Shown: in pieces, positions 1 through 8,785 of the stretch | Layout: the number at the start of each line of letters is the position of its first letter | How positions within the stretch are numbered: the first letter of the stretch is position 1 | Assembly (NCBI GenBank): GCA_030619085.1 | Contig: JAUXCD010000001.1 | Location: forward strand, 1 to 41,500 | DNA from: Candidatus Zixiibacteriota bacterium | Lineage (GTDB): Bacteria > Zixibacteria > MSB-5A5 > GN15 > FEB-12 | Direction of reading: 5' to 3' | DNA: 41,500 nt | Translations under genes and position numbers: made by a program | The notes under the pieces: model-generated | What the model saw: the letters and a program-made list of their open reading frames with translations, nothing else | Told to the model about the DNA's origin: nothing | Database searches by the model: none

Positions 1-969
1 AGCGATAAACAGCGGTTCAGTTACATCGGTTTTGAGGTCTTTCCCGGTACTCCCAAGGACCTGTTCAAGTCCGACGCAGAGAAGAAGAAACTGATAGAGC
101 AACTGCATGCCAGGCGCAGCGAGACCGGCGCTCGAGAACACTGCACCCTCATGGAAGAGCGGGTGTCGTTGGTAGATCGGCTCGTTCTGACTATCGCCTG
201 TGTGGTGATTCTGGCTGCGCTTTTTCTCCCGTGGTACTCCGCCTACAATGAAGTTGCCGAGGAGGTAACCGAACAGGCCACTACGGCAATGACGACCGAC
301 AGCCTTCTGACCGACAGCACCTTGGCCGACAGTACCATGTTGGCCGCGAATCTGGGCGATTCGATCGCAATGATGGCGGTGGTCACCGGTGAGGAAGGAC
401 AGGCGGCCGAGGGAACCTCCGAGGTCTCCGAGACTCCCGAGGTGGCGGCTGACGAGGGTACGGCAGGTCCAAAGATGGCGGTGACCAAGGGTGACCATGA
501 AGATGAAGAGCTTATTCACGGTTACGTGGCCAAAAAGAAAGTCCACCGGGATTATTCCAAGATGTCGGGTCTCGGCTCCGTTTTGGCGCTGGGCTCGGTT
601 GGGCCGATGGTGTTTTCTTCCGGAGGCATCCTGGTGCTGACGGCTTTCATACTGTTGATATACGCTCTTGGATGCATCGGACTGCCGCTCTATACTCTTT
701 GGGGGCTGTACGGCACCAAAGGCAATTCCGATGAAAGGGCGCTGCAGTTGAAGCGGATTACCAAGTTCAACTGGATTCCGGTGATTCTGTTTTTTGTCGC
801 TATGGTGCTTTCTTTCCTGGGTGCTGAATACGGTTTTGATTCGACAGTCCTTTATGCATCGATCGGTGAGGCTTATGGCCCCGGCGTGTTCTTGGGATCG
901 TTGTCCTGGGGGTTGTTTATATCACTGGCGGCCTTCATTTTGCTGGCCGTAAAAGGAATTGAGATCTAA
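1..969 (+). CDS. Integral membrane protein of unknown function; the 5' end may lie upstream of the window
   Basis: ORF track gives 151..969. Frame 1 has no stop codon from nt 1 to 150 and there is no SD before ATG151, so the CDS may continue upstream (SDKQRFSYIGFEVFPGTPKDLF...). It has an acidic Thr/Ser/Asp low-complexity stretch (TDSLLTDSTLADST) followed by about 4 hydrophobic helices (GILVLTAFILLIYALGCIGLPLY, WIPVILFFVAMVLSFLG, LFISLAAFILLAV). Confidence 0.6.
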   Translation, partial: SDKQRFSYIGFEVFPGTPKDLFKSDAEKKKLIEQLHARRSETGAREHCTLMEERVSLVDRLVLTIACVVILAALFLPWYSAYNEVAEEVTEQATTAMTTDSLLTDSTLADSTMLAANLGDSIAMMAVVTGEEGQAAEGTSEVSETPEVAADEGTAGPKMAVTKGDHEDEELIHGYVAKKKVHRDYSKMSGLGSVLALGSVGPMVFSSGGILVLTAFILLIYALGCIGLPLYTLWGLYGTKGNSDERALQLKRITKFNWIPVILFFVAMVLSFLGAEYGFDSTVLYASIGEAYGPGVFLGSLSWGLFISLAAFILLAVKGIEI

Positions 970-3716: not shown

Positions 3717-3756
3717 AAGCATCCCTGCCAATCGGCGAGGATGCTTTTTCTTTTTC
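3717..3756 (+). terminator. Rho-independent terminator of the exbB-tonB operon
   Basis: 8-bp stem aagcatcc (3717-3724) pairs with ggatgctt (3739-3746). It is followed by tttttcttttt. Confidence 0.7.
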
Positions 3757-3835
3757 GGGCCGCGTCGGCTATTTTGATAACCCTTTGTAATTGAGCAGCT
3801 TGTGATAAAATTGGTGGTAGCCTGTGTTTTTTCGC

Positions 3836-3864
3836 TTGACAGGGGCACAAATGTGCAGTATTAT
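3836..3864 (+). promoter_or_regulatory. Sigma70-type promoter (TTGACA-17 nt-TATTAT)
   Basis: TTGACA is at 3836-3841, followed by an exact 17-nt spacer and TATTAT at 3859-3864. The promoter lies 45 nt upstream of the zinc-ribbon ATG. Confidence 0.65.
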
Positions 3865-3908
3865 GCCTGCACGCCAATAATTGCCACCAAATCGAAAGGG
3901 GATAACAA

Positions 3909-4124
3909 ATGGACCACTTCAGCGATAGGGATGCTGTCTTTGCGGCCGAGTTTTCTGAGGACTACCGCTACGCCCTGCCGGGTTTTGTCAGCGCCGAGGA
4001 AAGCAGTAGCGATGAGATCAGCTATCTCAATGCCGCCACCTGTCCGGACTGCGGCGGCGGTATGGTTCGGCTGGGTAACTGCTTCAGTTGCCCGTCGTGC
4101 GGATATCAGAGCTGCGGCGTCTAA
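3909..4124 (+). CDS. Small acidic zinc-ribbon protein (CPDC...CPSC)
   Basis: 71 aa. AAAGGGGA SD lies 6 nt upstream and the consensus promoter lies upstream of that. Third codon positions are biased to C/G/T like neighbouring genes. The C-terminus has two CxxC knuckles (CPDCGGGMVRLGNCFSCPSCGYQSC). The N-terminal half is acidic. Confidence 0.6.
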   Translation: MDHFSDRDAVFAAEFSEDYRYALPGFVSAEESSSDEISYLNAATCPDCGGGMVRLGNCFSCPSCGYQSCGV

Positions 4125-4254
4125 GCGCCGGCTGCGTGTGATGCCGCACACGATTTCGAGTAAGAGTACGGTGCCCGGTGATGTCCTGCCGCGTGCGGTG
4201 ATGGATACTCACAGGGTGTCTGGGGCTGGGGTACTTTATGAGAAGGTTACGCTT

Positions 4255-6963
4255 ATGTATTTGAGTGATCTGAGCAAATGGGGGATACCGGAGTGCGTGC
4301 TACAGCGTTGGCGTGAGCGCCAGGGGGAACTGCTTCTGCCGGTGCAGAGCAAGGCGGTCCGCCGGGGACTGTTGGGGAATCCGTCGCCGGCCGATCAGCA
4401 GCACCCGGTCAACGTGCTGATTACCGCGCCGACGTCATCGGGGAAATCGTTCTGTGCCGAGCTGGCCGGTCTTAAAGCGGTCAGCGCTCGAAGGCGGACC
4501 GTGATGCTATTTCCGTTGAAATCACTGGCCGAACAAAAATATCGGCTTTTCCGCCAGACCTACGGACCGCTGGGGATCAAATGCCTGATTGTCACCGGCG
4601 ATCATCCGGAAAACGACCGGCCGTTTGTGGAAGGGAAATTTCAACTGGCTTTGGCTATCTATGAGAAACTCGACCAACTCCTGACCACCTCCCTGGATTC
4701 TTTGAAGAACGTCGGCACGGTGGTTGTGGACGAAATCCAGACTATCGCTGAGCCGGGGAGAGGCGCCGTTCTGGAGCGACTGCTGACGAAGATACTGGCG
4801 TCATCGTACACGCCCACCCTCGTCGGACTGTCGGCCGTCCTGGGGGGCGGCCACAATGCTTCGGCCGAGTTGATGGCTTCATGGCTTAGGGCGGTGCTGG
4901 TGGAGGAGACCGTCCGGCCGGTAGATCTGCTCCGAGGGGTGGCCGCCGAAGGTTCGTTCTGCTATCGTTCCTACAACAATCACCTGGAGGGTTCCCAGCC
5001 TTTTGTCAGAATCGAGGCGGGTGATGACCCTTATGTCGGTTTTGCCAACCAGGTGAAGTCCGATGACGGTTCCACGCTGGTATTTATGAAGTCGCGCATG
5101 GATACTGTCAACTGTGCCTGTCGCCTGGCCGCGGCCGTTGACTGGGGCCCGGCCCGTCATGCGCTGGACTTGCTGAAAGAAGAAGAACCGTCCTTTCTGG
5201 TGCGCTCGCTACGTCAGGCAATGAGCCACGGGGTGGCTTTTCATAATGCCGACCTCTCGCCACGACAAAGAAACATGGTAGAGCAAGCGTTTATAGATAA
5301 AGAAATTAAGGCGATTATATCAACTACTACTTTATCTATGGGGGTGAACCTCCCGGCGGATACGGTCTATCTGGAGACGGTCAAGTACGCCGCCGGTGAG
5401 TATGGCGGCAAACCGTCGCTGGTGCCGGTAACGCGATGTGAATTTGACAATATGACCGGCCGGGCCGGGCGGCTTGGGTCGGGTGATCGGGAAAAGCCGG
5501 GTCGGGCGATTGTTATGGCCGACTCCGCGTTTGAGCGGGAAGTGCTCTGGGCCAGCTATATCACTGGTGAGAATCACGACCTGTTCGACTCCGCCTTTGA
5601 CAGCATGCCCCTGGTCGACTGGACGCTTAATATTATTGTCTGTGGGCTGGCCCGAGATATGACCGGTCTTGAAGCCGTGTATGCTCATACCCTCCGGGCG
5701 CAAGATGGCGATGGCAATGACTCGTTGCCGGAATTTGAATCAGCCGTCGAGGCGCTCCGGCAAGCCGGACTGGTCAGATTCGATAAAGCGACCGGCGATA
5801 TTTTGCCGACCGCCCTGGGACGGGCGAGTTCTTCCCACGGATTGTCCGCCGCAGAGGTCGCTTACTACCTTTCTGAACTGAGTTCGTCCTGCCCGGAGAG
5901 AACGCCCGGCTGGCTGGCGCTGGCCCTGAGCGGTCCCGGATGGGCGCTGCCGGCCTCGCTGCTGACCAAATGGGAGTACAACCGCAATACATCCGTGAAG
6001 ATGCTCTGTCGCTTCTATGAGGAGCTTGTAAGCGATGCTGAGCGGCTGGTGCCGGTCAATCAACGTCAGCGGCCGACCTACCGGTCCTCGGCGGCGCTGA
6101 AGGCCTTTCTGGTGCTGCATGACTGGTGTCGTCTGGCTCCGGTGGAGAAGCTCGAGGAACGCTTTCAGATGCATCTGGGGCAGATTATGAGCCTCGGCGA
6201 AACGGCCGCTCATCTGGTCACCGCGATATCGGCATTGCTGGAAGCGACTGATCCTGACCCGAGCCGCGCCGACCATCTCTCTCGCTACGCCTTTACCCTT
6301 CGCTACGGTCTTCCTGACAACTGGCGCAAGCACCACCGGCACTTCCGAAATCTTCTCAGCCGCGGTGACTATATCGCGCTGGAGAGAGACGGCATACATG
6401 ATCTGGTCCAACTCTGTGAGTTATCGCCTGACCAGGTCGACCGGCTGATACCGGCCGGTGGTAAATCCGCAAAGATAAATAAGAGGATATTATCACTTAA
6501 AGAGGAGGTTTGTATGCAAACCAGAACTACCATGACGACGGCTGTGCCGGGCGCAAAAGCGGCCCTGCTGCTGGGTGAGCCGGAATCGATTGAGATCGAC
6601 GGCCGCTACGAAAAGGAACGCTACCTGATCCGGGTCAACGGCTTCCCGGTCTGGCTGACGGGTAAATCATTCAAGTACTTCGTGAAGCTGGCCTGGACGA
6701 GGTGCCACCGCGAAGCGGGATGGATTTACAAAGAGGACATCGAACAGGGGTTCAACCAGGCCCGTTACCTGTATCGCATGAAAAACGAGATTGCCGCGGG
6801 ACTGAGTATCAACTGGTCCGTGATCGAGAACAACCGGTTGGGGTATTATCGGCTGAGCGCCTTACCGTCAGCTATTCGTTTCAGCCTGGAGAACCTGAAA
6901 GATCACCCGGATTTCGAATTGCGTCAGCTTGTGCTCAAGAGGATTTCCGAAACCGTCAACTGA
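4255..6963 (+). CDS. Ski2/Hel308-like SF2 DEAD/DEAH-box helicase with C-terminal OmpR/PhoB-type winged-helix domain
   Basis: The ordered SF2 motifs are: I APTSSGKS, Ia LFPLKSLAEQK, II VVVDEIQ, III GLSAV, IV TLVFMKSR, V TTTLSMGVNLPA, VI MTGRAGR. A WH/ratchet/HhH-like region follows. The last ~150 aa match the Trans_reg_C pattern (LIRVNGFPVWLTGKSFKYFVKLA...ARYLYRMKNEI...NNRLGYYRL). I chose ATG 4255 as the start (alternative 4201). The ORF-track start at 3802 lies upstream of the promoter and overlaps the zinc-ribbon gene in another frame. Confidence 0.85.
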   Translation: MYLSDLSKWGIPECVLQRWRERQGELLLPVQSKAVRRGLLGNPSPADQQHPVNVLITAPTSSGKSFCAELAGLKAVSARRRTVMLFPLKSLAEQKYRLFRQTYGPLGIKCLIVTGDHPENDRPFVEGKFQLALAIYEKLDQLLTTSLDSLKNVGTVVVDEIQTIAEPGRGAVLERLLTKILASSYTPTLVGLSAVLGGGHNASAELMASWLRAVLVEETVRPVDLLRGVAAEGSFCYRSYNNHLEGSQPFVRIEAGDDPYVGFANQVKSDDGSTLVFMKSRMDTVNCACRLAAAVDWGPARHALDLLKEEEPSFLVRSLRQAMSHGVAFHNADLSPRQRNMVEQAFIDKEIKAIISTTTLSMGVNLPADTVYLETVKYAAGEYGGKPSLVPVTRCEFDNMTGRAGRLGSGDREKPGRAIVMADSAFEREVLWASYITGENHDLFDSAFDSMPLVDWTLNIIVCGLARDMTGLEAVYAHTLRAQDGDGNDSLPEFESAVEALRQAGLVRFDKATGDILPTALGRASSSHGLSAAEVAYYLSELSSSCPERTPGWLALALSGPGWALPASLLTKWEYNRNTSVKMLCRFYEELVSDAERLVPVNQRQRPTYRSSAALKAFLVLHDWCRLAPVEKLEERFQMHLGQIMSLGETAAHLVTAISALLEATDPDPSRADHLSRYAFTLRYGLPDNWRKHHRHFRNLLSRGDYIALERDGIHDLVQLCELSPDQVDRLIPAGGKSAKINKRILSLKEEVCMQTRTTMTTAVPGAKAALLLGEPESIEIDGRYEKERYLIRVNGFPVWLTGKSFKYFVKLAWTRCHREAGWIYKEDIEQGFNQARYLYRMKNEIAAGLSINWSVIENNRLGYYRLSALPSAIRFSLENLKDHPDFELRQLVLKRISETVN

Positions 6964-6964
6964 C

Positions 6965-7528
6965 CTAAGCCTGCATTTCGCGGACCCGGGTCTTGGGCAG
7001 TTCTTCGTGGCAATGGTTGTCGAAGCGCTTGATGATTGTTGCGGGCGTGCCACCGACAGTGCAGTTGTCCGGAACGTCGCGCATCACCACAAAACTGTTA
7101 GCGCCGATCTTGACATTGTTGCCGACCGTGATCGGCCCCAGCAGAATAGCCCCGGTTCCGACCAGAACATTGTTGCCCAGGGTAGGATGCCGTTTGCCGA
7201 TGTGCTTACCGGTTCCTCCCAGGGTGACATTGTGAAACAGAACGCAGTTGTCACCGATTTCAGTCGTCTCACCTATCACCAGACCGGCACCGTGATCGAC
7301 AAAGAACCCTTTGCCGAGAGTGGCTCCCGGATGAATCTCCAAGCCGGTGAAGAAGCGCGTCAACTGAGAAAACAAACGTGGGATAAACGGTACACCCAGC
7401 TTCCACAGAAAATGATTGATGCGGTGGAAGAAAATGGCATGAAACCCGGGATAGAGGAGAAACTCGATATTCCGGGCGGCCGGGTCGTTTCTGTAAATGG
7501 CCTTGATGTCTTCTAAGATTGCAAGCAT
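6965..7528 (-). CDS. cysE: Serine O-acetyltransferase
   Basis: 187 aa. The N-terminus [28 protein letters not shown] is typical of CysE. Left-handed hexapeptide repeats follow ([38 protein letters not shown]...). It lies immediately downstream of cysK. Confidence 0.9.
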
Positions 7529-7553
7529 AGTCTCTTATATCGTCAAAAATATA

Positions 7554-8474
7554 TTATTTTTGATCATTGAATAATGCCGTGGAAAGATAACGCTCCCCGG
7601 TATCGCAGATGATGGTCACCACGACTTTGCCGGGCCCGAGCTTTTCAGCCACCTGAATCGCCGCCCAAACGTTGGCGCCGGCCGAGATTCCGCCCAGGAT
7701 ACCTTCCTTCCGGGCGAGTTGTCTGGCCATCTCGAAGGTGTCATCGTTTTTGACGCGAATTACCTCATCGACAACACTGGCGTCATAGTTGTCCGGGATA
7801 AAGCCCGCGCCGATTCCCTGGATCGGATGTGGTCCCGGCTCGCCGCCGGAAATCACCGGCGAGGCCTCAGGCTCCACCGCATAGATTCTACAGCCGTACT
7901 TGTCTTTCAAAACCGCCCCGGCGCCGGTGACCGTACCGCCCGTCCCGACACCGGCCACGAAGGCGTGGAGGGAAAGGTCAGCAAGGTCTTCGATAATCTC
8001 TTTACCGGTGGTGAGGCGGTGAATTTCCGGATTGGCCGGATTGCTGAACTGGAATGGCTGGAAATAGCCGTGCCGAGCGGCCAGTTCCTCGGCTGCCTTA
8101 ATCGCCCCCTTCATACCTTCCTTACCCGGAGTGAGCACGATCTCGGCTTCGAACATCTTGAGAACCGCCCGTCGCTCCAGACTCATCGTTTCCGGCATAG
8201 TCAAGATGCATCGATATCCCTTGGCCGCGGCTACCATAGCCAGGGCGATGCCGGTATTGCCCGAAGTCGGCTCCACTATTGTCATGCCCGGCTTCAGGGT
8301 ACCATCTCGTTCCGCTGTCTCGATCATGGCCGCGCCAATCCGGTCTTTTACCGAACTGCCCGGGTTGAAACTCTCCATCTTGCAGTAGATTGTCGCCGAG
8401 TTCTCTCCGGCGAGGCGGTTGATTCTCACCAGAGGGGTATGACCGATAGCCTGGATAATGTCGTCAAATCTCAT
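7554..8474 (-). CDS. cysK: Cysteine synthase A (O-acetylserine sulfhydrylase)
   Basis: PLP-dependent fold motifs are present: [25 protein letters not shown] (PLP lysine), [23 protein letters not shown] placed the start at the internal Met MRFDDI (8474), which matches family N-termini. The ORF track extends to 8525. Confidence 0.9.
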
Positions 8475-8785
8475 TTTTTGGTTCCTGTGTTTGGGACTGC
8501 CACGGCAGTGTTTAACCGTAAACAACCGCTAACTTCGATAGTGCGGGCCTATTGACTATACGACACTGCCGGCTAAGTTATTTGTGTTGGCCGGTCTGTT
8601 GGCGGAGCAAGTATGGCCCTTTAACGCTAAGACGTGGCAATAGGTTCCTTGACCTATTTCGGAAGAAATCACGGCCTTCTTGACTATCACGCCCGACCAT
8701 ATCAATTGACAAGGAATCAACAATTTTCGTAGCTTGGATTCAGCAACCGCCTGCTGAGCCGATAAGCAATATGACACGGTAGAAT

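Follow-up and report, generated by a model that had tools for sequence, protein, structure and literature searches.

To our knowledge, the Hel308 family of helicases has been regarded as archaeal and eukaryotic, its place in bacteria being taken by Lhr. The archaeal Hel308/Hjm proteins and the helicase domains of metazoan HelQ and PolQ are composed of five domains (two RecA domains, a winged helix, a ratchet and a helix-hairpin-helix), and the same five are predicted in the bacterial protein described here. It is encoded in a stretch of 41,500 nucleotides from Candidatus Zixiibacteriota (positions 1 to 41,500 of the forward strand of contig JAUXCD010000001.1), hereafter the window, in which a gene for a small zinc-ribbon protein precedes the gene for a large helicase with an additional winged helix at its C-terminus. 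Archaeal Hel308 targets replication forks, as a passage of PMC7437997 relates with reference to Guy and Bolt 2005, Buttner et al. 2007 being given there on Hel308 as well, and mycobacterial Lhr is damage-inducible (PMC7437997, PMC5758891). We propose, with moderate confidence, that the Zixibacteria locus is a core operon, controlled by a repressor and probably inducible by DNA damage, which provides a Hel308-type 3'-to-5' DNA helicase together with a zinc-ribbon partner.

Sequence and structure comparisons agree on the nature of the helicase. The alignment with the Hel308 models of NCBIfam extends over residues 7-687 (E=4e-76 to 2e-53), the best sequence matches in the PDB are Hjm, Hel308, ASCC3, Brr2 and the PolQ helicase domain, and phmmer aligns residues 613-739 to residues 569-692 of Hjm, i.e. 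domains 4-5. The superfamily 2 (SF2) motifs are present as APTSSGKS (motif I), DEIQ (motif II) and GRAGR (motif VI), of which GKS, DEIQ and GRAGR are invariant across the helicase family. The domain model Helicase_dom4_arc is weak in the helicase itself (residues 590-668, E=1.7e-4) and scores above its cut-off in relatives, which also match HHH_5. The full-length AlphaFold (AF2) model, built from 62 sequences, has a mean predicted local distance difference test score (pLDDT) of 87.3 and a predicted template-modelling score (pTM) of 0.78. Foldseek with this model returns Hel308/Hjm first, at E ~1e-36 and a target-normalised template-modelling (TM) score of 0.83-0.88 over ~700 residues, then the PolQ helicase domain (TM 0.75-0.80) and Brr2; the alignment spans whole Hel308 chains. 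According to these models, residues 1-750 compose a Hel308 fold that has all five domains and an intact motor. An earlier reading of the nucleotide letters, hereafter the original prediction, had proposed a Hel308-type SF2 helicase, and that assignment is borne out.

Both open reading frames (ORFs) are real genes: the helicase has at least 120 full-length homologues (~900 residues, 49-58% identity) and the small ORF is conserved at the protein level beside it. Those helicase homologues whose source is named come almost all from Candidatus Zixiibacteriota. A GTG-initiated ORF of 1053 residues from position 3802, taken from a mechanical ORF list, was rejected as an artefact; it overlaps the small ORF, and the homologues start at the position corresponding to 4255.

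The most conserved stretch of the helicase protein is the C-terminal winged-helix domain, with 40 invariant columns. The invariant stretches are LTGKSFKY, GFNQARYLYRMK, which is the putative recognition helix, ENNRLGYYRL and HPD.E. In an AlphaFold model of residues 760-902 (pLDDT 87, pTM 0.82), three strands at the N-terminus lead into helix 1, which is succeeded by helix 2 (short), helix 3 (long) and a beta hairpin; one more strand and two helices complete the domain. The top PDB matches of this tail in Foldseek are the OmpR/PhoB-family DNA-binding domains of CadC, VicR, GlnR, YycF, PrrA, PhoP and NsrR, with a probability of 0.8-0.93 and a target-normalised TM of 0.54-0.58, but with E-values of only 0.1-0.6. 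Two family alignments were used for the profile comparisons, a shallow one (A1) and a profile of 78 distant homologues (A2). Against the PDB, the latter profile matches the ArlR DNA-binding domain over its full length (E=0.07-0.09). Aligned by hhalign with eight OmpR-family domains of E. coli (MG1655), A2 gives E=3e-4, a probability of 39% and 88 columns in register, whereas A1 gives only 25 columns at E=0.01. In this register LT.KSF faces LT..EF, the NQARYLYRMK helix faces the recognition helix, and GYYRL faces the GYRF wing.

The Pfam model Trans_reg_C (PF00486) found no match at E<=10 in the 152-residue tail, in the 222-residue tail or in 40 family members, and it matches 1 of the 78 distant homologues (E=0.011). 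We conclude that the tail is, as modelled, a divergent OmpR/PhoB-like winged helix that falls outside PF00486 as now defined. The OmpR/PhoB winged-helix tail of the original prediction is thereby upheld in predicted fold (Foldseek) and, more tentatively, in remote homology (hhalign), but not as a Trans_reg_C hidden Markov model match. With the OmpR/PhoB/CadC domain it shares the N-terminal beta sheet, the three helices and the C-terminal hairpin wing ending in G-Y-(Y)-R-L; it differs in its very short helix 2, in the added C-terminal strand and helices, and in being joined to a helicase instead of a receiver domain. The invariant acidic HPD.E stretch (window 6904-6921, residues 884-889) follows the wing and has no OmpR/PhoB counterpart. 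It also occurs in many stand-alone homologues, and its Asp is nearly invariant.

The winged-helix domain belongs to a larger, unannotated family with ~100 clusters of stand-alone proteins. A profile search of 1.84 billion cluster representatives returned 423 proteins at E<=1e-3, and the best 149 of these 423 comprise 23 helicases of at least 800 residues, 30 proteins of intermediate length and 96 proteins shorter than 200 residues. Those intermediate-length proteins that have a Pfam match (9 of 10 tested) are all helicase fragments. In 91 of the 96 short proteins the chain starts with Met and contains nothing but the domain; many stand-alone members have 110-160 residues. One of them, P0235 (L052:4176-4556), lies on a phage-like contig ~1.2 kilobases 5' of terminase (GpA), portal and capsid genes, from which two small ORFs separate it. 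Such a position is typical of late-gene regulators. The phage-like early region that holds P0194 also has an XRE regulator, a Rad52-like recombinase and DUF5131; P0200 is found among small co-directional ORFs, and P0191 among archaeal-looking neighbours that we read as a TFIIS-type ribbon protein and a Cdc48-like ATPase. On a short contig, P0212 (198 residues; L054:71-667) carries a C-terminal cysteine-rich extension, CGCG...CFFCGLWFCHQC, and so joins the winged-helix domain and a zinc-binding-like module in one chain. PHROGs gave nothing for the tail or for five stand-alone homologues, and the stand-alone proteins are also without Pfam annotation. In BFVD, Foldseek returned no named match; in GenBank phages, tblastn with the tail and with two stand-alone homologues returned none at all, and a scan of IMG/VR with A1 revealed no relatives.

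The second component of the operon, the zinc-ribbon protein, is preceded by AAGGGG and is represented by 46 homologue clusters. Its N-terminal half is acidic and variable (10 acidic and 2 basic residues among residues 1-40), and conservation is confined to the last ~32 residues, where the loci share the ending Y.NAA[TS]CPDCG.GMVR.G.CF.C.SCG..SCG. The cysteines are located at positions 45, 48, 58, 61, 64 and 69 (CPDC...C..CPSC....C), with the spacing C-x2-C-x9-C-x2-C-x2-C-x4-C, and all six are invariant. The small protein with its acidic N-terminal half and CPDC...CPSC ribbon was thus described correctly by the original prediction, except that four cysteines had been counted instead of six. Searches with this protein gave no match in PHROGs and no meaningful match in PADLOC. 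In NCBIfam, the C-terminal end of NF006417 (class II ribonucleotide reductase, RNR) matches it at E=8.6e-6, and both NF006417 and NF005122 match window positions 4041-4121, i.e. residues 45-71.

The small ORF is closely linked to the helicase. Of the 25 Zixibacteria loci whose upstream sequence is visible, 24 have it directly 5' of the helicase; in L001 it is seen by tblastn, and a more divergent zinc-ribbon ORF precedes the helicase in three distant loci (L041-L043). The synteny expected from the original prediction is therefore observed.

The promoter region provides the strongest clue to regulation. The near-consensus promoter TTGACA-17 nucleotides-TATTAT was correctly recognised in the original prediction; the conserved operator inside it was absent from that account. 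The same promoter is kept in all 26 related loci examined (27 with the window copy), and the aligned core reads CTTGACA-nn-TGCAC-AAAT-GTGCA-GTATnnT, which all 27 loci match with at most one mismatch over the 21 specified positions. Each position of the promoter core carries on average 1.63 bits of information, and each position of the flanks ~0.5. Filling the spacer between the -35 and -10 hexamers is a palindrome with the family consensus TGCAC-AAAT-GTGCA (14 base pairs), often extended to 16 base pairs as CTGCAC-N4-GTGCAG. All 27 loci fit TTGACAnnTGCACnnnnGTGCAGTAT with at most one mismatch, the window copy having one. It is the sole match at this tolerance across the 41.5 kilobases of the window, and in the ~±6 kilobases scanned around each operon the palindrome occurs once per locus, solely at the zinc-ribbon/helicase promoter. 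Promoter and palindrome are invariant while the encoded proteins share merely ~50-58% identity.

Since a site between the -35 and -10 hexamers is the classic position of a repressor, we read the palindrome TGCAC-N4-GTGCA as a putative repressor operator resembling LexA boxes. A second, semi-conserved element, GCCAATAATTG, is located at window positions 3876-3886, with the consensus gCCGATAAaa and the same position in L002-L028. It stands ~12-20 nucleotides 3' of the -10 hexamer, inside the 5' leader of the zinc-ribbon gene. Scans of the whole window against Rfam and for tRNA genes gave no matches.

Table 1. Positions of the regulatory sites, genes and protein domains of the locus, in window coordinates.
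Feature	Position	Strand	Basis or description
Intrinsic terminator of the upstream ExbB-ExbD-ExbD-TonB operon	3717..3757	+	Hairpin AAGCAUCC...GGAUGCUU, then T-run UUUUCUUUUU
Sigma-70-type promoter	3836..3864	+	TTGACA 3836-3841, 17 nucleotides, TATTAT 3859-3864; 11/12 consensus matches
Palindromic operator GGCACAAATGTGCA	3844..3857	.	Between -35 and -10 hexamers; candidate repressor (LexA-type) site
Six-cysteine zinc-ribbon protein, 71 residues	3909..4124	+	ORF; C-terminal pattern Y.NAATCPDCGGGMVRLG.CFSCPSCG..SCG
Helicase ORF, 902 residues	4255 (ATG)..6963 (stop)	+	GAGAAGG precedes start; homologues start at same residue
Two RecA-like SF2 motor domains, helicase residues 1-440	4255..5574	+	Pfam DEAD 52-195, Helicase_C 319-408
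Hel308 domains 3 (winged helix), 4 (ratchet) and 5 (helix-hairpin-helix), helicase residues 441-752	5575..6510	+	Models, Hjm alignment
Flexible linker, residues 753-773	6511..6573	+	pLDDT <50 in full-length model; unconserved in family alignment
OmpR/PhoB-like winged helix, residues 776-898	6580..6948	+	AF2, Foldseek, hhalign; family-specific C-terminal extension

The transcription unit is bounded on both sides (Table 1). The terminator hairpin of the upstream operon, computed to fold at -25.3 kcal/mol (z=-2.46), forms the 5' boundary of the cassette; the genes before it give matches to TonB_C, ExbD and MotA_ExbB. On the 3' side a convergent hexapeptide acyltransferase gene (cysE-like) ends at 6965, followed by a gene for a pyridoxal phosphate (PLP) enzyme (cysK-like) and by Lon. 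With its own promoter, the upstream terminator and the convergent neighbour, the cassette is an independent unit, as had been proposed.

A scan of one genome per species found 31 helicase loci, almost all labelled Zixibacteria or binned with them. In many Zixibacteria genomes the order recurs as a conserved 272-residue protein-ExbB-ExbD-ExbD-TonB(-TonB), zinc-ribbon ORF, helicase and Lon, and the same order is seen in more divergent members that were reached via the C-terminal domain (P0198, P0216). The recurrence of gene order and position across the Zixibacteria loci marks zinc ribbon and helicase as part of the core genome, inherited vertically, and not of a mobile element or defence island. 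In the common order Lon directly follows the helicase, relative to which the cysE-like and cysK-like genes of the window (6965-8525) are an insertion. This pair also stands between helicase and Lon in L028, and in L008 cysE alone follows the helicase at the contig end. The 272-residue protein before ExbB (window 151-969) has no Pfam match; it is 44-56% identical to the proteins that occupy this place in many Zixibacteria loci.

The architecture as a whole, like the tail domain by itself, corresponds to no family in Pfam, NCBIfam, PADLOC or PHROGs, and literature searches found neither a description of it nor a paper linking Zixibacteria to this Hel308-type helicase or, usefully, to LexA. The view of the original prediction that the architecture had not been described is in line with this outcome. 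The novelty lies in the domain fusion, the partner and the defined regulatory site that here accompany a probable repair helicase of the Hel308 family in a bacterial phylum.

The proposed action of the operon can be outlined as follows. In unstressed cells a dimeric repressor, for which LexA is the favoured candidate, would bind TGCAC-N4-GTGCA in the promoter spacer and block RNA polymerase. On induction, the zinc-ribbon gene and the helicase would be co-transcribed, because no terminator or promoter was detected between them; the 130-nucleotide gap is also without an unusual fold (z=-0.04). The Hel308 core, with its intact ATPase motifs and to judge from its homology, would load onto single-stranded DNA where forks have stalled or broken, and would unwind in the 3'-to-5' direction like archaeal Hel308. 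The winged helix, carried on a flexible linker of ~20 residues, may add a contact to duplex DNA or to a partner, by which the motor would be targeted or anchored. More speculatively, the six-cysteine zinc ribbon might act as an accessory subunit, possibly a redox-sensitive one.

LexA is suggested by the form of the operator. The E. coli SOS box is CTGT-N8-ACAG, and the extended operator CTGCAC-N4-GTGCAG has the same CTG-N10-CAG frame. Zixibacteria are usually placed in the Fibrobacteres-Chlorobi-Bacteroidetes (FCB) group, which includes Fibrobacter. The LexA box of Fibrobacter succinogenes, as reportedly defined by experiment, reads TGCNCN4GTGCA, a form said to go back to Mazon et al. in 2004, and the operator fits it. 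Like the LexA/SOS operators, the site is a palindrome of 14-16 base pairs overlapping the promoter of a DNA-repair gene. Metagenome contigs were also scanned for the palindrome 86-145 nucleotides upstream of the recA motif FGKGx[IV]M. Six stretches were found, which represent four distinct recA promoters, none assigned to Zixibacteria. In one of them, the recA of L044 (L044:5830-5925; a metagenome contig of 65% G+C), the layout is like that of the helicase operon, i.e. TTGACA, 4 nucleotides, TGCACACCTGTGCA and GTAAT, and the promoter reads cTTGACAaccTGCACACCTGTGCAGTAAT.

Several observations weigh against this proposal. As regards the repressor, two of the four recA matches come from a cyanobacterium (L046) and, by RecA homologues, from an acidobacterial source (L049), and by our rough estimate of the number of recA genes four matches are no more than chance would give. 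LexA is therefore put forward as a candidate repressor only. As regards the helicase, the scores are far under the NCBIfam Hel308 equivalog cut-offs (256.9 bits against 887, and for NF040935 181.8 against 1200), so that the protein should be regarded as a divergent Hel308 relative, not an equivalog. Motif II (window 4729-4740) is DEIQ, not DExH. In pairwise alignment, a Ser and a nearly invariant His (window ~6190-6215) occupy the positions of an Arg and a Trp of Hjm, which we take to be the ratchet-helix residues stacking on the tracking strand, presumably those of Buttner et al. 2007. With motif II altered and the ratchet residues seemingly replaced, the substrate preference may differ from that of archaeal Hel308. 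As regards the partners, binding of the winged helix to DNA and of the small protein to the helicase is presumed, and so is the sequence-specific mode of DNA binding that the original prediction ascribed to the tail. In L011 (1-420), the sole exception among the 25 loci, the promoter-operator stands 46 nucleotides before the helicase start with no zinc-ribbon ORF between, which shows that a partner in this place is not indispensable.

It is conceivable, if rather unlikely, that the operon regulates itself, the winged helix of the helicase or the zinc-ribbon protein being the repressor of its own palindrome independently of LexA. The invariance of the putative recognition helix GFNQARYLYRMK within the most conserved part of the protein, together with an equally invariant operator, would suit such a loop, as would the restriction of the palindrome to a single copy at this one promoter in the sequences examined. 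OmpR/PhoB-type domains are, moreover, typical sequence-specific DNA binders. However, OmpR-family domains usually bind direct repeats, and a palindrome suggests a symmetric dimer. Much of this recognition helix is also present in the stand-alone homologues on phage-like and archaeal-like contigs, although no such palindrome is seen in their loci, which argues for a generic ligand. Furthermore, the uniqueness of the operator holds for the ~±6 kilobases around each operon, not genome-wide. Archaeal Hel308, for its part, is reported to be monomeric (PMC10946056), which also counts against self-regulation.

We give a similarly low probability to a transcription-coupled translocase whose targets would be stalled RNA polymerase or R-loops, after the manner of archaeal Eta/ASH-Ski2 or of bacterial Mfd. 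The associated idea, to which we give no greater credence, is that the OmpR-like domain and the zinc ribbon contact RNA polymerase instead of DNA. OmpR-family domains carry a surface touching RNA polymerase, which fits such a role, and the position of the stand-alone P0235 just 5' of terminase, portal and capsid genes is typical of late-gene activators. The Ski2-like helicase ASH-Ski2/Eta, which is linked to transcription termination, bears a four-cysteine zinc finger at its N-terminus (PMC10946056), and the zinc ribbon here is encoded just upstream, i.e. on the N-terminal side, as is the finger of ASH-Ski2. Mycobacterial Lhr, in addition, unwinds RNA:DNA hybrids (PMC5758891). Nevertheless, the helicase has the Hel308 domain 5 that is missing in ASH-Ski2, and its best matches in sequence and structure are the DNA helicases Hel308, Hjm and PolQ.

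A bolder view, which we also consider doubtful, is that a complete Hel308 of archaeal type passed to Zixibacteria and was remodelled there into a machine with three parts, namely motor, tethered winged helix and zinc-ribbon subunit, unmatched by described helicase systems. In its furthest version, the winged helix or the zinc ribbon would read the palindrome, and the machine would repress its own promoter besides serving as a site- or structure-targeted remodeller. It is in the same measure doubtful whether, as this view holds, the winged helix came from a previously unannotated DNA-binding family common to phage-like contigs and the zinc ribbon is possibly redox-switchable.

Less probable still is that the two genes are unrelated neighbours, the zinc ribbon serving ribonucleotide reduction as a free-standing analogue of the cysteine array of the class II RNR NrdJ and merely sharing a damage-inducible promoter with the helicase. 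The C-terminal array of NrdJ is formed by Cys-920, 923, 933, 936, 939 and 945, so that the six cysteines have nearly identical spacing with only the last interval differing (x5 in NrdJ, x4 here), and the NF006417 match falls at the extreme C-terminus. In NrdJ, four of these cysteines are proposed to hold zinc and two to be a redox pair, and in some NrdJ subclasses the cysteine-rich domain comes from a separate gene (PMC5704485). That L011 keeps the helicase without the small ORF can be taken in the same sense. On the other hand, the NrdJ cysteine-rich domain has 150-220 residues, of which only the last ~35 resemble the zinc-ribbon protein. The latter stands in a helicase operon and not with an RNR, no RNR gene being found in the window or near the operon in related loci, and its place directly 5' of the helicase in nearly all Zixibacteria loci and in the three distant ones also counts against this view.

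An anti-phage defence module on a Ski2-like helicase, Hachiman-like or new, which the original prediction had offered as one option, is very improbable and is rejected on genomic context: PADLOC HamB profiles (E=4e-25) and HamB in the PDB (E=3e-13) do match the helicase, and homologues of the winged-helix domain do occur in phage-like contigs, but the PADLOC matches cover the RecA core only (e.g. residues 52-225 and 263-409) and not the full length, no HamA-like (DUF1837) gene is adjacent among the TonB, hexapeptide acyltransferase, PLP enzyme and Lon neighbours, the pair keeps the same chromosomal position in a housekeeping gene order in all loci across the phylum, the opposite of the patchy distribution of defence islands, and a strong promoter of constitutive type under the control of a repressor would suit a stress regulon.

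Returning to the repressor-controlled repair operon, which we prefer, a Hel308 with all five domains and two added modules is retained throughout a bacterial phylum, always at one place in the chromosome, and its promoter-operator unit is among the most conserved that could be expected between genomes so divergent. If the proposal is true, the operon would offer a tractable bacterial model for Hel308/HelQ/PolQ-type fork repair, and the operator would be the first functional handle on the DNA-damage response of an uncultivated phylum. In that case the winged-helix family, with 423 clusters and none annotated, could also enter the domain databases as a new family. The sharing of the six-cysteine ribbon with class II ribonucleotide reductases may point to a zinc and redox module open to reuse.

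Compared with the known systems, the helicase stands closest to archaeal Hel308/Hjm, to which it is ~22-25% identical with the SF2 motifs kept; its motif II, DEIQ, is like that of Suv3 and unlike the DExH of Hel308. It further differs from the archaeal and metazoan Hel308-type proteins in being bacterial and phylum-wide, in the extra ~150 residues of linker and winged helix, in the zinc-ribbon partner encoded by a separate gene, and in the repressor-type promoter. Bacterial Lhr and MrfA, which are SF2 repair helicases of 3'-to-5' polarity, also combine a Hel308-like core with accessory domains at the C-terminus (PMC5758891, PMC7437997, PMC7797055). The similarity to Lhr is, however, weak (TIGR04121 E=9e-16, motor only; Lhr structures E ~1e-4), and Lhr is without the Hel308 domain 5 and has its own C-terminal region, related to AlkZ DNA glycosylases and SecB chaperones (PMC10953399). 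Archaeal ASH-Ski2/Eta resembles the locus in combining a Ski2-like helicase with a small cysteine zinc finger on the N-terminal side (PMC10946056), but there the finger is fused, has four cysteines and accompanies a helicase without domain 5, whereas here a separate six-cysteine protein accompanies a Hel308-type helicase.

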